From Escherichia coli (GTDB taxonomy: Bacteria > Pseudomonadota > Gammaproteobacteria > Enterobacterales > Enterobacteriaceae), in NCBI RefSeq assembly GCF_024502345.1, contig NZ_JALDNN010000001.1: a stretch of DNA of 64,000 nt; one strand, written 5' to 3'. Each line of letters begins with the position of its first letter. The first letter of the stretch is position 1. This document shows positions 5,096-36,509 of the stretch, piece after piece. The position numbers were made by a program, and so were the translations under genes. The notes beneath the pieces were generated by a model. That model had not been told where the DNA came from. It saw nothing but the letters and a program-made list of their open reading frames with translations, and did not search any database.

Positions 5096-6187
5096 ATGCG
5101 TTTTCTGCGCCGACCAATATCGCTGCGCCAACGGCTGATATTGACCATCGGGGCCATTTTGTTGGTGTTTGAGCTGATCAGCGTCTTCTGGCTATGGCAT
5201 GAAAGTACCGAGCAGATTCAGCTGTTTGAGCAGGCGCTACGCGACAATCGCAACAACGATCGCCACATCATGCGTGAGATCCGCGAGGCGGTCGCCAGCC
5301 TGATTGTCCCCGGCGTCTTTATGGTCAGCCTGACGCTATTTATCTGCTATCAGGCGGTACGCCGCATCACCCGCCCGCTGGCGGAGCTGCAAAAAGAGCT
5401 GGAAGCGCGCACCGCCGACAACTTAACGCCCATTGCCATTCACAGCGCCACCCTCGAAATCGAAGCGGTGGTTTCAGCGTTAAACGATCTGGTCAGTCGC
5501 CTGACCAGCACGCTGGATAACGAAAGGTTGTTTACCGCTGACGTCGCGCACGAACTGCGAACGCCACTGGCGGGGGTACGTTTGCATCTGGAACTGCTGG
5601 CGAAAACGCATCACATTGATGTAGCACCGTTAGTGGCACGGCTTGATCAGATGATGGAGAGCGTCTCCCAGCTGCTGCAACTGGCGCGTGCCGGACAGTC
5701 ATTTTCTTCCGGTAATTATCAACATGTAAAACTGCTGGAAGATGTCATTCTCCCCTCGTATGACGAACTCAGTACCATGCTCGACCAGCGACAGCAAACC
5801 CTGCTATTGCCAGAGAGCACCGCCGACATCACCGTTCAGGGTGATGCAACCCTGCTGCGGATGTTATTGCGAAACCTGGTAGAAAACGCCCATCGTTACA
5901 GCCCGCAAGGCAGCAACATTATGATTAAGCTGCAAGAAGATGGCGGAGCGGTCATGGCAGTTGAAGATGAAGGACCAGGTATTGATGAGAGTAAATGCGG
6001 GGAGTTGAGTAAAGCGTTTGTACGTATGGACAGCCGTTATGGCGGGATTGGTCTGGGGTTAAGTATTGTCAGCCGCATTACACAGTTGCATCACGGGCAG
6101 TTTTTCCTGCAAAACCGGCAAGAGACTTCCGGCACGCGGGCCTGGGTACGGCTGAAGAAAGATCAGAACGTGGCAAACCAGATATAA
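5096..6187 (+). CDS. basS: Two-component sensor histidine kinase
   Basis: HisKA H-box (ADVAHELRTPL) and ATPase motifs; start at ATG 5096 or TTG 5087. Confidence 0.92.
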   Translation: MRFLRRPISLRQRLILTIGAILLVFELISVFWLWHESTEQIQLFEQALRDNRNNDRHIMREIREAVASLIVPGVFMVSLTLFICYQAVRRITRPLAELQKELEARTADNLTPIAIHSATLEIEAVVSALNDLVSRLTSTLDNERLFTADVAHELRTPLAGVRLHLELLAKTHHIDVAPLVARLDQMMESVSQLLQLARAGQSFSSGNYQHVKLLEDVILPSYDELSTMLDQRQQTLLLPESTADITVQGDATLLRMLLRNLVENAHRYSPQGSNIMIKLQEDGGAVMAVEDEGPGIDESKCGELSKAFVRMDSRYGGIGLGLSIVSRITQLHHGQFFLQNRQETSGTRAWVRLKKDQNVANQI

Positions 6188-6252
6188 AGAAAGCTGCTGA
6201 CCACCAGCACGCTGAACACGGTAGTTAAACTTTCATAAACACGGTTTTTCAT
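6163..6252 (-). CDS. pmrR: 29-aa small membrane protein PmrR, antisense-overlapping the basS 3' end
   Basis: Manual translation gives MKNRVYESLTTVFSVLVVSSFLYIWFATF; 25-nt convergent overlap with basS. Confidence 0.7.
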   Translation of the reverse strand: MKNRVYESLTTVFSVLVVSSFLYIWFATF

Positions 6253-6296
6253 TGCACTCTCCTCCGTTAACCTGGAGGAGAGTATGCGCGTCAGAG

Positions 6297-6313
6297 ATTA
6301 AGTGAACCTTAAG
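6297..6313 (-). promoter_or_regulatory. BasR/PmrA box upstream of pmrR
   Basis: On the minus strand reads CTTAAG-N5-CTTAAT, about 45 bp upstream of the pmrR ATG. Confidence 0.5.
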
Positions 6314-6322
6314 AGTTCAATT

Positions 6323-11233: not shown

Positions 11234-11634
11234 AGAAAATTCTTCCTTAAAGCAAATTTTGTTACTTTTATTTAGCCAGATTGTTTTTGAGTTCTGTTTT
11301 CGGCTTTTATAATTACTGCAAGAAATAATTTTATATTTAGCGTGTTGTTTTTTATTATAATAAATAACGTCTTCCGATACGTTTAAAACGTCAGAAAGAT
11401 AAAAATATCATGTGAATTAAAAAAAGAACAAGTAGAGCATTAACATTATCTTAAATAATAAATAGAGGCAAAAAGATTATTTTCTTTTTGCGTTCCCTTT
11501 CAAATGAAAACGATCGTCGTCTAAAATCAGCAGTACCCCCGACAAACTCAGGGATTTTGTGTATAATTGCGGCCTTTTTCGGCAATCTGCCGTTTTTTGG
11601 CGCTTTTGCCCTGCTGACTTTTGAGGAAATCCAC

Positions 11635-11970
11635 ATGTCATTACCACACTGCCCAAAATGCAACTCCGAATACACCTACGAAGATAACGGCATGTACATC
11701 TGCCCGGAATGTGCCTACGAATGGAACGACGCAGAACCTGCACAGGAAAGCGACGAGCTGATCGTTAAAGATGCTAACGGCAATCTGCTGGCTGACGGCG
11801 ACAGCGTTACCATCATTAAAGATCTGAAGGTGAAAGGTAGCTCTTCGATGCTGAAAATTGGCACCAAAGTGAAAAACATCCGCCTGGTTGAAGGCGACCA
11901 TAACATCGATTGCAAAATCGACGGTTTTGGTCCGATGAAACTGAAATCTGAGTTTGTGAAAAAGAACTGA
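11635..11970 (+). CDS. yjdM: PhnA-like zinc-ribbon protein
   Basis: 111-aa product [26 protein letters not shown]...; the tool ORF from 11488 is an upstream extension with no support. Confidence 0.88.
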
Positions 11971-11987
11971 TTGTATTGTGATCGGTA

Positions 11988-12165
<178 letters not shown>

Positions 12166-12227
12166 CCTCTCATCTGTATAAATTTCGAACTACACTTAAC
12201 TGGCTTCTCTTAACTGAGGTCACCATC

Positions 12228-12671
12228 ATGCCGTTAAGTCCCTACCTCTCTTTTGCCGGTAACTGTGCCGACGCAATTGCTTATTATCAACGTACGTTGG
12301 GCGCTGAACTGCTCTATAAAATCAGCTTCGGCGAAATGCCAAAATCAGCGCAGGACAGCGCCGAGAACTGCCCTTCCGGAATGCAATTTCCCGATACCGC
12401 CATCGCCCACGCCAATGTGCGCATTGCCGGAAGCGACATCATGATGAGCGATGCCATGCCGTCAGGAAAAGCCAGCTACTCCGGCTTTACGCTGGTGCTC
12501 GATTCGCAACAGGTCGAAGAAGGAAAACGCTGGTTTGACAATCTTGCCGCTAACGGAAAAATCGAAATGGCCTGGCAGGAAACTTTCTGGGCGCATGGCT
12601 TTGGCAAAGTCACCGATAAATTTGGCGTACCGTGGATGATTAATGTCGTCAAACAACAACCAACGCAATAA
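12228..12671 (+). CDS. yjdN: VOC/glyoxalase-like protein (PhnB-like)
   Basis: 147-aa ORF in the conserved position upstream of phnC. Confidence 0.85.
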   Translation: MPLSPYLSFAGNCADAIAYYQRTLGAELLYKISFGEMPKSAQDSAENCPSGMQFPDTAIAHANVRIAGSDIMMSDAMPSGKASYSGFTLVLDSQQVEEGKRWFDNLAANGKIEMAWQETFWAHGFGKVTDKFGVPWMINVVKQQPTQ

Positions 12672-14635: not shown

Positions 14636-14728
14636 CGTAGGTCGGATAAGACGCCCCGGCGTCGCATCCGACAATGTGCAGGCGTTGATGCCGGATGCGG
14701 TGCAAGCACCTTATCCGGCCTACAGACC
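14636..14728. repeat. REP pair between phnD and phnE
   Basis: gtcggataagacg...gcgtcgcatccgac and gccggatgcgg...ccttatccggcc palindromic units. Confidence 0.75.
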
Positions 14729-19961: not shown

Positions 19962-20050
<89 letters not shown>

Positions 20051-31962: not shown

Positions 31963-34110
31963 ATGAAAAAAGTCGTCACGGTTTGCCCCTATTGCGCATC
32001 AGGTTGCAAAATCAACCTGGTCGTCGATAACGGCAAAATCGTCCGGGCGGAGGCAGCGCAGGGGAAAACCAACCAGGGTACCCTGTGTCTGAAGGGTTAT
32101 TATGGCTGGGATTTCATTAACGATACCCAGATCCTGACCCCGCGCCTGAAAACCCCCATGATCCGTCGCCAGCGTGGCGGCAAACTCGAACCTGTTTCCT
32201 GGGATGAGGCACTGAATTACGTTGCCGAGCGCCTGAGCGCCATCAAAGAGAAGTACGGTCCGGATGCCATCCAGACGACCGGCTCCTCGCGTGGTACGGG
32301 TAACGAAACCAACTATGTAATGCAAAAATTTGCGCGCGCCGTTATTGGTACCAATAACGTTGACTGCTGCGCTCGTGTCTGACACGGCCCATCGGTTGCA
32401 GGTCTGCACCAATCGGTCGGTAATGGCGCAATGAGCAATGCTATTAACGAAATTGATAATACCGATTTAGTGTTCGTTTTCGGGTACAACCCGGCGGATT
32501 CCCACCCAATCGTGGCGAATCACGTAATTAACGCTAAACGTAACGGGGCGAAAATTATCGTCTGCGATCCGCGCAAAATTGAAACCGCGCGCATTGCTGA
32601 CATGCACATTGCACTGAAAAACGGCTCGAACATCGCGCTGTTGAATGCGATGGGCCATGTCATTATTGAAGAAAATCTGTATGACAAAGCGTTCGTCGCT
32701 TCACGTACAGAAGGCTTTGAAGAGTATCGTAAAATCGTTGAAGGCTACACACCGGAGTCGGTTGAAGATATCACCGGCGTCAGCGCCAGTGAGATTCGTC
32801 AGGCGGCACGGATGTATGCCCAGGCGAAAAGCGCCGCCATCCTGTGGGGCATGGGTGTAACCCAGTTCTACCAGGGCGTGGAAACCGTGCGTTCTCTGAC
32901 CAGCCTCGCGATGCTGACCGGTAACCTCGGTAAGCCGTATGCGGGTGTAAACCCGGTTCGTGGTCAGAACAACGTGCAGGGTGCCTGCGATATGGGCGCG
33001 CTGCCGGATACGTATCCGGGATACCAGTACGTGAAAGATCCGGCTAACCGCGAGAAATTCGCCAAAGCCTGGGGCGTGGAAAGCCTGCCTGCTCATACCG
33101 GTTATCGCATCAGCGAGCTGCCGCACCGCGCAGCGCATGGCGAAGTGCGTGCCGCGTACATTATGGGCGAAGATCCGCTACAAACTGACGCGGAGCTGTC
33201 GGCAGTACGTAAAGCCTTTGAAGATCTGGAACTGGTCATCGTTCAGGACATCTTTATGACCAAAACCGCGTCGGCGGCGGATGTTATTTTACCGTCAACG
33301 TCGTGGGGCGAGCATGAAGGCGTGTTTACTGCGGCTGACCGTGGCTTCCAGCGTTTCTTCAAAGCAGTTGAACCGAAATGGGATCTGAAAACGGACTGGC
33401 AAATCATCAGTGAAATCGCCACCCGTATGGGTTATCCGATGCACTACAACAACACCCAGGAGATCTGGGATGAGTTGCGTCATCTGTGCCCGGATTTCTA
33501 CGGTGCGACTTACGAGAAAATGGGCGAACTGGGCTTCATTCAGTGGCCTTGCCGCGATACTTCAGATGCCGATCAGGGGACTTCTTATCTGTTTAAAGAG
33601 AAGTTTGATACCCCGAACGGTCTGGCGCAGTTCTTCACCTGCGACTGGGTAGCGCCAATCGACAAACTCACCGACGAGTACCCGATGGTACTGTCAACGG
33701 TGCGTGAAGTTGGTCACTACTCTTGCCGTTCGATGACCGGTAACTGTGCGGCACTGGCGGCGCTGGCTGATGAACCTGGCTACGCACAAATCAATACCGA
33801 AGACGCCAAACGTCTGGGTATTGAAGATGAGGCATTGGTTTGGGTGCACTCGCGTAAAGGCAAAATTATCACCCGTGCGCAGGTCAGCGATCGTCCGAAC
33901 AAAGGAGCGATTTACATGACCTACCAGTGGTGGATTGGTGCCTGTAACGAGCTGGTTACCGAAAACTTAAGCCCGATTACGAAAACGCCGGAATACAAAT
34001 ACTGCGCCGTGCGCGTCGAGCCGATCGCCGATCAGCGCGCCGCCGAGCAGTACGTGATTGACGAGTACAACAAGTTGAAAACTCGCCTGCGCGAAGCGGC
34101 ACTGGCGTAA
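31963..34110 (+). CDS. fdhF: Formate dehydrogenase H, selenocysteine-containing molybdoenzyme
   Basis: Two tool ORFs (31963..32382 and 32431..34110) are one frame joined through in-frame TGA at 32380-32382 (codon 140); N-terminal Cys cluster CPYCASGC. Confidence 0.93.
32380..32425 (+). other. UGA selenocysteine codon plus downstream SECIS hairpin
   Basis: In-frame TGA immediately followed by cacggcccatcggttgcaggtctgcaccaatcggtcgg, which can fold as a stem-loop. Confidence 0.7.
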
Positions 34111-34203: not shown

Positions 34204-34893
34204 ATGAAAAAAATTATCGCATTGATGTTGTTTTTGACATTCTTTGCCCACTCCAACGACTCCGAGCCTGGCAGCCAGTATTTAAAGGCAGCAGAGGCCG
34301 GGGACCGACGCGCACAATATTTTCTTGCCGACAGCTGGTTTAGCTCCGGCGATTTGAGCAAAGCCGAATATTGGGCACAGAAAGCCGCCGACAGCGGTGA
34401 TGCTGATGCCTGCGCGCTGCTGGCGCAGATCAAAATCACCAATCCGGTCAGTCTGGACTATCCACAAGCAAAAGTTCTTGCAGAGAAAGCGGCGCAAGCG
34501 GGCAGTAAAGAAGGTGAAGTAACGCTGGCGCATATTCTGGTAAATACTCAAGCGGGTAAACCGGATTATCCAAAGGCAATTTCGCTGTTAGAAAACGCCT
34601 CGGAAGATCTGGAGAACGACTCTGCCGTCGATGCCCAAATGCTGCTTGGTTTGATTTACGCCAACGGCGTGGGCATTAAGGCCGACGATGACAAGGCAAC
34701 CTGGTATTTCAAACGCAGCTCTGCAATTTCCCGAACCGGTTATTCCGAGTACTGGGCGGGAATGATGTTCTTAAACGGTGAGGAAGGTTTTATCGAGAAG
34801 AACAAACAAAAGGCGCTGCACTGGTTGAACCTGAGCTGTATGGAAGGGTTTGATACCGGGTGTGAAGAGTTTGAAAAATTAACCAACGGTTAA
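34204..34893 (+). CDS. yjcO: Secreted Sel1/TPR-like repeat protein
   Basis: 229-aa ORF with signal peptide and repeated AxxWxxKAAxxG-type motifs. Confidence 0.85.
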   Translation: MKKIIALMLFLTFFAHSNDSEPGSQYLKAAEAGDRRAQYFLADSWFSSGDLSKAEYWAQKAADSGDADACALLAQIKITNPVSLDYPQAKVLAEKAAQAGSKEGEVTLAHILVNTQAGKPDYPKAISLLENASEDLENDSAVDAQMLLGLIYANGVGIKADDDKATWYFKRSSAISRTGYSEYWAGMMFLNGEEGFIEKNKQKALHWLNLSCMEGFDTGCEEFEKLTNG

Positions 34894-34894
34894 G

Positions 34895-35158
34895 GTAGGC
34901 CTGATAAGACGCGTTAAGCGTCGCATCAGGCGTTGATGTCGGATGCGGCGTAAACGCCTTATCCGACCTACAAAATCACGCTAAATCAGGCTATTGCGCT
35001 GTCTGGCGTAGGCCTGATAAGACGCGGCAAGCGTCGCATCAGGCATTGATGTCGGATGCGGCGTAAACGCCTTATCCGACCTACAAAATCACGCTAAATC
35101 AGGCTATTGCGCTGTCTGACGTAGGCCTGATAAGACGCACCAGCGTCGCATCAGGCAT
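34895..35158. repeat. Tandem BIME/REP array (two ~114-bp units plus a partial third)
   Basis: Near-identical units taggcctgataagacgc...gcgtcgcatcaggc...gtcggatgcggcgtaaacgccttatccgacctacaaaatcacgctaaatcaggctattgcgctgtctg. Confidence 0.85.
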
Positions 35159-35195
35159 CCACACATTGCCGGGGGATAACCCCGGCAATCTTCAA

Positions 35196-36509
35196 TTATT
35201 GATCCGCAGTTTTATCAAATTTGCCCAGCACTTCACGCTCATAAGCCAGCGCCTTTTTGCGGTCAAATTTGTGTTCCCACTTGGCAATCACCAGCACCGC
35301 CAGCGCATTACCCACCACGTTCAGCGCAGTACGCGCCATGTCGAGGATACGGTCAACACCAGCAATAAACGCCAGACCTTCCAGCGGAATACCTACGCTA
35401 CCCAGCGTTGCCAGCAACACCACAAACGACACGCCCGGCACGCCAGCAATCCCTTTCGAGGTCACCATCAGCGTCAGCACCAGAATGATTTCCTGCCAGA
35501 TGGACAGGTCAATGCCATACAGCTGAGCGATGAAAATAGCGGCAATACTTTGATACAGCGTCGAACCATCAAGGTTAAAAGAGTAACCGGTCGGCACCAC
35601 GAAGCTGGTGATCGACGCCGGTGCTCCGTAGGCTTCCATCTTCTCAATAATTCGCGGCAGTACGCTTTCAGAGCTGGCAGTGGAGTACGCCAGAATCAGC
35701 TCATCTTTCAGAATACGAATCAGGATCCAGACGCTTAACCCGCACAGGCGCGCCACAATTCCCAGCACTACCAGCGCGAAAAACAGAATGGCGAAATGCA
35801 CCAGCAGCACCAGTTTCGCCAGTGGCCACAGAGAAGAGAAACCAAAGTTAGCCACCGTCACCGCAATCAGCGCAAACACACCCACCGGTGCATAACGCAT
35901 CACCATGTGAGTCACTTTAAACATGGTTTCAGAGATGGAGCGGAACACGGTCACCAGCGGTTCACGATGCGTCGCGGGCAGGGAGGAAAGCCCCAGACCA
36001 AACAGCACCGAGAAGAAGATGATCGGCAGCATTTCGCCTTTCGCCATCGACGCCACAATGTTCGTCGGCACCAGCGACAAAATCGTGCCCATAATGCCGT
36101 GGGAACTGCTTTGTACCGCTTCCGTAGTGCTCTGATATTTCGAGATATCGACGGTCGCCAGCTGCGACATATCCACCCCGGCACCGGGCTGGAAGACGTT
36201 CGCCAGAGTGATCCCCAAAATGATGGCGACGGTGGTGATCACCTCGAAGTAAATAATGGTTTTCGCGCCAATACGCCCGAGCTGTTTGGCATCACCCACA
36301 CCCGCGATACCCACCACCAGCGTGGAGATCACAATCGGCACAACAATCATTTTAATCAGATGGATGAAGATATCACCCGCCGGAGAGAGCAAATTGACGA
36401 CCAGCCAGTCGCGGCTGTCGCTATGGTAGTGCAGGTAGCTTCCCAGGAGAATGCCCAGCACCATAGCAAACAGAATCTGCCAGGCCAGGCTGAATTTTAT
36501 ACTTTTCAT
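35196..36509 (-). CDS. gltP: Glutamate/aspartate:proton symporter (DAACS family)
   Basis: 437-aa membrane ORF. Confidence 0.93.
   Translation of the reverse strand: MKSIKFSLAWQILFAMVLGILLGSYLHYHSDSRDWLVVNLLSPAGDIFIHLIKMIVVPIVISTLVVGIAGVGDAKQLGRIGAKTIIYFEVITTVAIILGITLANVFQPGAGVDMSQLATVDISKYQSTTEAVQSSSHGIMGTILSLVPTNIVASMAKGEMLPIIFFSVLFGLGLSSLPATHREPLVTVFRSISETMFKVTHMVMRYAPVGVFALIAVTVANFGFSSLWPLAKLVLLVHFAILFFALVVLGIVARLCGLSVWILIRILKDELILAYSTASSESVLPRIIEKMEAYGAPASITSFVVPTGYSFNLDGSTLYQSIAAIFIAQLYGIDLSIWQEIILVLTLMVTSKGIAGVPGVSFVVLLATLGSVGIPLEGLAFIAGVDRILDMARTALNVVGNALAVLVIAKWEHKFDRKKALAYEREVLGKFDKTADQ

Follow-up and report, generated by a model that had tools for sequence, protein, structure and literature searches.

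Genes yjcO and gltP converge in the analysed window (the whole stretch of Escherichia coli DNA considered here, 64 kb long) and are separated by an intergenic gap of 302 bp, most of which is occupied by an array of REP sequences (Table 1). This location had already been proposed in the first-pass annotation and was confirmed by the ORF list and by genome matches. The stop codon of yjcO (TAA) is found at 34891-34893. Among 5,426 complete E. coli genomes, the best match to the window was 99.5% identical. The GC-rich hairpin located between the array and the gltP stop was kept in every allele parsed, and it displayed no canonical U-tract on either strand. Since a simple terminator scan called no intrinsic terminator on either strand of the gap, this hairpin is not claimed as a terminator. 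A scan of the gap for promoter-like sites found none.

Tandem Repeats Finder described positions 34895-35158 as a single tandem array with a period of 113, 2.3 copies, 95% matches, no indels and a score of 479. A repeat finder placed full copies at 34895-35007 and 35008-35120 (96% identity), and a third recurrence of the first 18 nt of the unit from 35121 onwards. Both programs hence recovered the near-identical direct repeats announced in the first-pass annotation; the tandem unit was real, its length having to be corrected from 'about 114 bp' to a period of 113 bp, and the partial third copy turned out to be the terminal Z2 REP. Direct comparison of the two full 113-nt units revealed four mismatches, of which two fall in the loop of the first REP and one each in the short linker and at the end of the long one. 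Two copies of this length differing at four positions cannot be of chance origin.

On the + strand, each unit opens with a Z2 REP in reverse orientation, joined head-to-head to a Y REP by a linker of 6 nt, and ends with a tail-to-tail linker of 36 nt. The complete order is Z2(-) Y(+) Z2(-) Y(+) Z2(-), the third Z2 REP forming the array end. A regular-expression scan with REP consensus sequences detected these five REPs in alternating orientation, including the REP pair previously noticed in each unit, and retrieved 15 REPs from the 64-kb window, against 0 in each of 20 shuffles. All five are imperfect palindromes of ~35 nt which display the conserved GTAG/CTAC foot and a Y or Z2 consensus. Like typical REPs they are extragenic and associated with gene 3' ends, here between the stop codons of two converging genes. 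The first Z2 REP, which reads GTAGGCCTGATAAG... on the + strand, starts 2 nt past the yjcO stop, and its hairpin stem begins at 34899 according to RNA folds. The Y REPs carry a compensated GTC...GAC variant of the stem foot. Folds of both strands of the array were much more stable than those of dinucleotide shuffles (z = -11.1 and -8.6).

Table 1. Features of the yjcO-gltP region, in window coordinates.
Feature	Position	Strand	Length, sequence and basis
yjcO CDS (Sel1/TPR-like repeat protein)	34204..34893	+	ORF list; RefSeq annotation of matching E. coli genomes
Z2-type REP no. 1	34895..34931	-	37 nt; REP scan, RNA fold
S-type head-to-head linker no. 1	34932..34937	.	GTTGAT; parsed architecture
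Y-type REP no. 1	34938..34971	+	34 nt; REP scan
L-like tail-to-tail linker no. 1	34972..35007	+	36 nt; alignment to 10 BIME-1 L linkers, IHF core
Z2-type REP no. 2	35008..35044	-	37 nt; REP scan
S-type head-to-head linker no. 2	35045..35050	.	ATTGAT; parsed architecture
Y-type REP no. 2	35051..35084	+	34 nt; REP scan
L-like tail-to-tail linker no. 2	35085..35120	+	36 nt; IHF core consensus at 35097-35109
Terminal Z2-type REP no. 3	35121..35156	-	36 nt; REP scan, parsed architecture
Rfam naRNA4 (RF02564) matches	34898-34968 and 35011-35081	-	one Y-S-Z2 REP pair each, gltP-sense direction
GC-rich hairpin	35165..35189	.	10 bp, ATTGCCGGGG-GATAA-CCCCGGCAAT; RNA folds; between array and gltP stop
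gltP CDS (glutamate/aspartate:proton symporter)	35196..36509	-	ORF list and genome match; converges on array

Further REP clusters were located in the window at 11985-12167 (4 REPs), 14637-14723 (2), 19962-20044 (2) and 45612-45688 (2). All four clusters that had earlier been listed at 11988, 14636, 19965 and 45586 were recovered by the REP scan; the last of these starts is accounted for by a truncated REP head (GCCGGATGCG...) at 45587-45611, just upstream of the REP pair. The BIME-2 at 11985-12167 is flanked by a PhnA/YjdM-like ORF (11488-11970) and a PhnB/YjdN-like ORF (12228-12671), which identifies it as REP325, the yjdM-yjdN element published as the naRNA4 locus. It comprised only two units in the window (4 REPs, period 100; Rfam naRNA4 scores of 106.8 and 104.7 bits) as compared to six reported for MG1655, so that the element reported to matter for nucleoid condensation is itself variable in copy number.

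Further Rfam matches in the window were features expected of E. coli: the selenocysteine insertion element of fdhF (Rfam SECIS_2, 87 bits) at 32375-32429, just before the ORF at 32431-34110, and small RNAs STnc630 and SraL at 6156-6321 and 52925-53065 (Rfam). The RefSeq annotation of strain 21AR0173 (NZ_CP195488.1) includes a 'hypothetical protein' of 52 aa (WP_155951439.1), placed on the - strand inside the array, where it overlaps yjcO at its 3' end; this ORF, called in repeat DNA, is very probably spurious. A low-coverage contig attributed to the myxobacterium Pyxidicoccus caerfyrddinensis (NZ_JAAIYA010000177.1; 240 bp, coverage 0.53) corresponded almost exactly to part of the E. coli yjcO-gltP array, with its Z2, Y and linker units. 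It almost certainly stems from contaminating E. coli DNA, possibly of prey origin, rather than from the myxobacterium. Gene yjcO is mentioned in PMC4632034 only for an unrelated coding SNP.

The 36-nt tail-to-tail linker, AAAATCACGCTAAATCAGGCTATTGCGCTGTCTGRC, was private to the yjcO-gltP locus and occurred exactly twice in the window. It was present in 2,642 of the 5,426 E. coli genomes, in one to eight copies, which track the number of units at this locus and do not represent a dispersed family. The first linker displays the IHF core consensus AATCAGGCTATTG at 34984-34996, a perfect match to WATCARNNNNTTR. This pattern alone is weak, with 11 matches in the window for 4.4 expected, and the linker was therefore aligned to canonical L linkers, ten of which (Y-to-Z, tail-to-tail) were extracted from 140 kb of MG1655. 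It aligned without gaps to these ten BIME-1 linkers, its orientation with respect to the Y REP matching theirs; the mean score was 6.7 versus 2.7 for shuffles (z = 5.6; 0 of 2000 shuffles), while the reverse complement scored 2.4, which is the shuffle level. The shared frame is AAAA-N-C-N-N-GC-N-AA-N-TCA-R-NNN-ATTGC. With its score of 6.7 the linker stood further from the L linkers than most of these do from one another (10-17, leave-one-out), one genuine L linker reaching only 4.1. As judged from this alignment, it is best described as a diverged L-type linker, the kind by which BIME-1 is defined and which bears the BIME-1 IHF site.

The composition of the array combined features of several classes. 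Shared with BIME-2 are the alternating Y and Z2 REPs in inverse orientation and in tandem, the short S linker between REP heads (6-nt GTTGAT or ATTGAT, to be compared with ATTGATT in the BIME at 45648-45654) and a copy number varying from zero to nine units between strains at the same locus. Shared with BIME-1 is an L linker of ~35 nt with an IHF consensus between REP tails; it did not resemble the tail-to-tail linkers of 13 and 17 nt seen in the other Y/Z2 clusters of the window. The pairing of one Y with one Z1 REP, which characterizes BIME-1, was absent, the partner REPs being of type Z2 (36-37 nt), and no match to the Z1 consensus was found in the window at up to three mismatches. Nor was the array single-copy, as it comprises two units here and up to nine elsewhere. 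Ton-Hoang et al. 2012 (PMC3333891) defined BIME-1, BIME-2 and atypical BIMEs, the latter being chimeras which combine motifs of the two types (y, z1, z2, L, S, s, l, r) and 'like BIME-2 ... occur in multiple copies'; the array answers to this description with Y, Z2, S and an L-like linker in tandem. By its sequence, it can accordingly be considered BIME-2-like with respect to Y/Z2 composition and tandem form, and an 'atypical' (chimeric) BIME with respect to its linker. A cruder definition based on REP type only (PMC1187871) would class it as BIME-2. The L-like linker explains why published lists assign the array inconsistently, as BIME-2 by composition, BIME-1 in one table and atypical by linker.

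Among known systems, the closest is the gltP-yjcO BIME of K-12 itself (B319, PMC3333891; 486-bp entry of table DS3, PMC6379681), which displays the same flanking genes, unit, terminal Z2 REP and hairpin. It differs by its number of units (five in MG1655 and four in W3110, against two here), by a few point differences in the REP loops, at a G/A position of the S linker and where the linker ends (GGC or GAC), and by the foot of the yjcO-proximal Z2 REP, which is GTAG in the window (34895-34898) and ATAG in K-12 (MG1655 and W3110). REP325 resembles the array in its alternating tandem Y/Z2 REPs, short head-to-head linker, strain-variable copy number and Rfam naRNA4 matches, but its unit is 100 bp long, with 13 nt between REP heads and, between REP tails, a 17-nt linker unrelated in sequence, whereas the yjcO-gltP linker is 36 nt long and L-like. 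BIME-1 elements (RIP/RIB), composed of a Y REP, an L linker with IHF site and a Z1 REP in a single copy of about 97 bp, share the 35-36-nt tail-to-tail linker, the AAAA beside the Y REP and an IHF-type core whose register and orientation are the same. In contrast to these, the array has Z2 instead of Z1 as partner REP, is tandem instead of single, and carries a linker that departs from the L consensus. By joining Y, Z2, S and an L-type linker in tandem, it fits directly into the atypical BIMEs of the 2012 definition, from which no difference was found.

The number of units was determined in 59 complete genomes, sampled evenly down the ranking, by a query consisting of the flanks only, the gap length being deduced from the match span; representatives of every class were fetched and parsed. 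Some complete assemblies may hold collapsed or mis-sized arrays, and the counts have to be read with this caveat: zero units in 23 of the 59 genomes, one in five (three of them O157:H7 alleles with a 24-nt linker), two in eight, three in three, four in seven and five in one. The only element remaining in the 0-unit alleles was the terminal Z2 REP. The other genomes displayed a second family of end structures, with a degenerate first Z2 REP and without a terminal Z2 REP, in which one, four, five, six and eight Y REPs were encountered in one, six, two, one and two of the 59 genomes, respectively. Strain CFT073 harbored nine Y REPs in a gap of 1,053 bp. Sublines of K-12 also diverged, with five units in MG1655, four in W3110 and several others, and one in GM4792. 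When individual units were typed, MG1655 (...d d e d...) and W3110 (...d e d...) differed by a change of one unit, and CFT073 displayed an x y x y run whose order indicates duplication of a block of two units. The same array was found at the same locus in Escherichia whittamii (two units) and in Escherichia sp. E1V33 (five Y REPs), which implies that it predates the diversification of E. coli.

The prediction of copy-number variation made in the first-pass annotation was thereby upheld for this locus by strain comparison, with zero to nine units across complete genomes. The word 'duplicated' proved too narrow for a locus with that many alleles. By comparison with the sampled strains, the array of the window corresponds to the 2-unit allele, an ordinary and fairly common state of a multi-allelic repeat, and this state may equally stem from contraction of a longer array. 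We consider it well supported (a probability of roughly 0.85) that the yjcO-gltP feature represents the allele with two units of a tandem REP array (BIME) of variable copy number, which fills the gap between two converging genes. As only the terminal REP was kept in about 39% of the sampled genomes, the tandem part is clearly not essential.

An array with alternating tandem Y/Z2 REPs and a short S linker could also be regarded as a canonical BIME-2 whose main role would be to serve as a strong site for DNA gyrase and to insulate the converging transcription units topologically, since the BIME-2 class is enriched for gyrase cleavage and has been proposed to form supercoiling barriers. An element of 486 bp, at 4,300,548-4,301,034 of a W3110 derivative, is filed under 'BIME-1' in table DS3 of Sutormin et al. 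2019 (PMC6379681). After subtraction of a 1,123-bp offset, verified on the named lamB-malM element, its coordinates become 4,299,425-4,299,911 and coincide exactly with the 4-unit yjcO-gltP array of W3110. The published Topo-Seq data assign 0 gyrase cleavage sites to this element under each of four conditions (ciprofloxacin, rifampicin plus ciprofloxacin, microcin B17, oxolinic acid), a count that concerns the 4-unit allele of K-12 and that short-read mapping in repeats may underestimate. Other tandem BIME-2 of the same table score many sites, those of similar size up to 35 (e.g. tldD-yhdP; PMC6379681). The published K-12 map thus gives no sign of strong gyrase cleavage at the locus, and with a published count of zero the canonical strong gyrase site was rejected; the L-like nature of the tail-to-tail linker and the filing of the array under BIME-1 likewise speak against this reading, which we regard as unlikely. 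Of the two kinds of protein-binding sites suggested in the first-pass annotation, gyrase sites were accordingly not retained, whereas IHF sites received sequence support from the L-like linker and the core consensus.

The IHF core was imperfect in the second allele family (CATCAG...), and in the 1-unit allele of O157:H7 (strain 7409) the linker measured 24 nt instead of 36, a 12-nt deletion (AATCAGGCTATT) having taken exactly the IHF-like core. Any role of IHF is therefore dispensable. The supplements of Kasho 2021 contain no mention of gltP, yjcO or fdhF, and REPs are not mentioned in Prieto 2012.

It is quite improbable that the array represents a cluster of naRNA4-like small RNA genes, whose Y-S-Z2 double-hairpin transcripts would condense the nucleoid together with HU as proposed for REP325. 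Both full units did exceed the gathering score of RF02564 on the - strand (79 and 75.2 bits versus 59.5; a third, partial match reached 50.4 bits, below that score), their arrangement (reverse Y, head-to-head linker, Z2) matches that of REP325, and most REPs are transcribed according to Qian et al. 2015. However, the Rfam model is effectively that of a generic Y/Z2 REP pair and also matched four other REP pairs of the window, no promoter-like site emerged from the scan of the gap, and the array is absent from about 39% of the sampled strains.

Assemblers can mis-size short tandem repeats, and complete K-12 genomes differ in their count (one, four or five units), partly perhaps by error; the tandem structure might then be an assembly artefact of a single unit. 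This was rejected, and is given hardly any credence, because the 2-unit allele is common to independent genomes: it makes up eight of the 59 sampled genomes, and an independent complete genome matched the locus at identical length in a single ungapped alignment (99.5%). The array moreover spans only 264 bp, and its four differences make the units distinguishable. A CRISPR-like array, evoked by palindromic repeats of ~35 nt at regular spacing, was discarded altogether, as the spacers are identical to each other and not unique, two repeat types alternate in opposite orientation, canonical REPs are present genome-wide, and the neighbours are yjcO and gltP without any flanking cas genes.

To return to the copy-number-variable array, comparison of strains showed gains and losses of whole units, and at times of two-unit blocks. 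Two routes of turnover are plausible. Units could be gained and lost by replication slippage or unequal recombination, for which no special enzyme would be needed between units that are 96-100% identical. Alternatively, they could be cleaved and rejoined by the REP-associated tyrosine transposase TnpA_REP. A partial BIME of MG1655, 'B319, located at gltP-yjcO', was cleaved by TnpA_REP in vitro at four sites in the linker, with C|T as the essential dinucleotide; cleavage and rejoining were proposed to underlie the diversification and amplification of BIMEs, whose tandem number at one locus differs among strains (Ton-Hoang et al. 2012, PMC3333891). Exactly four CT dinucleotides occur in the 36-nt linker (+ strand), a number that would fit the published count of four cleavage sites. 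Together with the GTAG foot displayed by all Z2 and Y REPs, the array thus has the hallmarks of a TnpA_REP (RAYT) substrate (5' GTAG foot and C|T sites) at the sequence level only. Because GTAG was reported as required for recognition by TnpA_REP (Ton-Hoang et al. 2012, PMC3333891), the yjcO-proximal REP of K-12, with ATAG in its place, may be inert as a RAYT binding site.

Effects on RNA and through IHF can be inferred for the array from established REP biology. The REP hairpins would form very stable 3' structures in transcripts, block 3'-to-5' exonucleases and so stabilise the upstream mRNA. The first hairpin lies 5 nt past the yjcO stop and should dampen translation of yjcO, as REPs within 15 nt of a stop codon lower translation of the upstream gene, a rule restated in PMC12306157. 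In DNA, each unit would offer one IHF-type site. None of these proposed effects can be essential, given that ~39% of strains retain the terminal REP only and that the IHF core is imperfect or lost in some alleles. The number of units (zero to nine) might even serve as a heritable and rapidly changing tuner of yjcO/gltP expression or of local DNA architecture, each added unit supplying one more IHF-type site and one more hairpin pair in the 3'-UTR, but we hold this to be very unlikely.

Variation in unit number also bears on a recurrent variant call. Laboratory-evolution studies have reported a C-to-T change in the gltP/yjcO intergenic region, at 4,296,060 of NC_000913.3; its frequency in populations was about 10-33%, and it was not reported from clones (PMC11510482, PMC12956098). 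This position of MG1655 is the last base of an S linker (ATCAAC versus ATCAAT), a site which differs between units and whose counterparts in the window are the S linkers of Table 1. T is what the yjcO-proximal unit carries at this site, and no other junction than 4,296,060 shares its flanking REP-loop variants. Compared with W3110, strain 8A and CP047127, the MG1655 reference has a proximal Y REP that is shorter by 2 nt. Judging from these sequences, reads of the proximal unit probably map to 4,296,060 with one mismatch, and the C-to-T call would therefore likely be a mapping artefact and not an adaptive mutation.

Both the class of array and the yjcO-gltP locus are already known from the literature, as are REP/BIME arrays and their variable copy number, so that the biological gain is small. 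Were the number of units to act as a tuner, the locus would become a contingency-like one built from REPs, and not merely a case of neutral repeat turnover. Near-identical units trouble short-read work, K-12 assemblies disagree on the unit count, and the yjcO-gltP gap should be treated as a variable-number repeat in variant calling and assembly comparison. For REP biology, the array offers a natural example of a tandemly amplified BIME with an L (IHF-type) linker.
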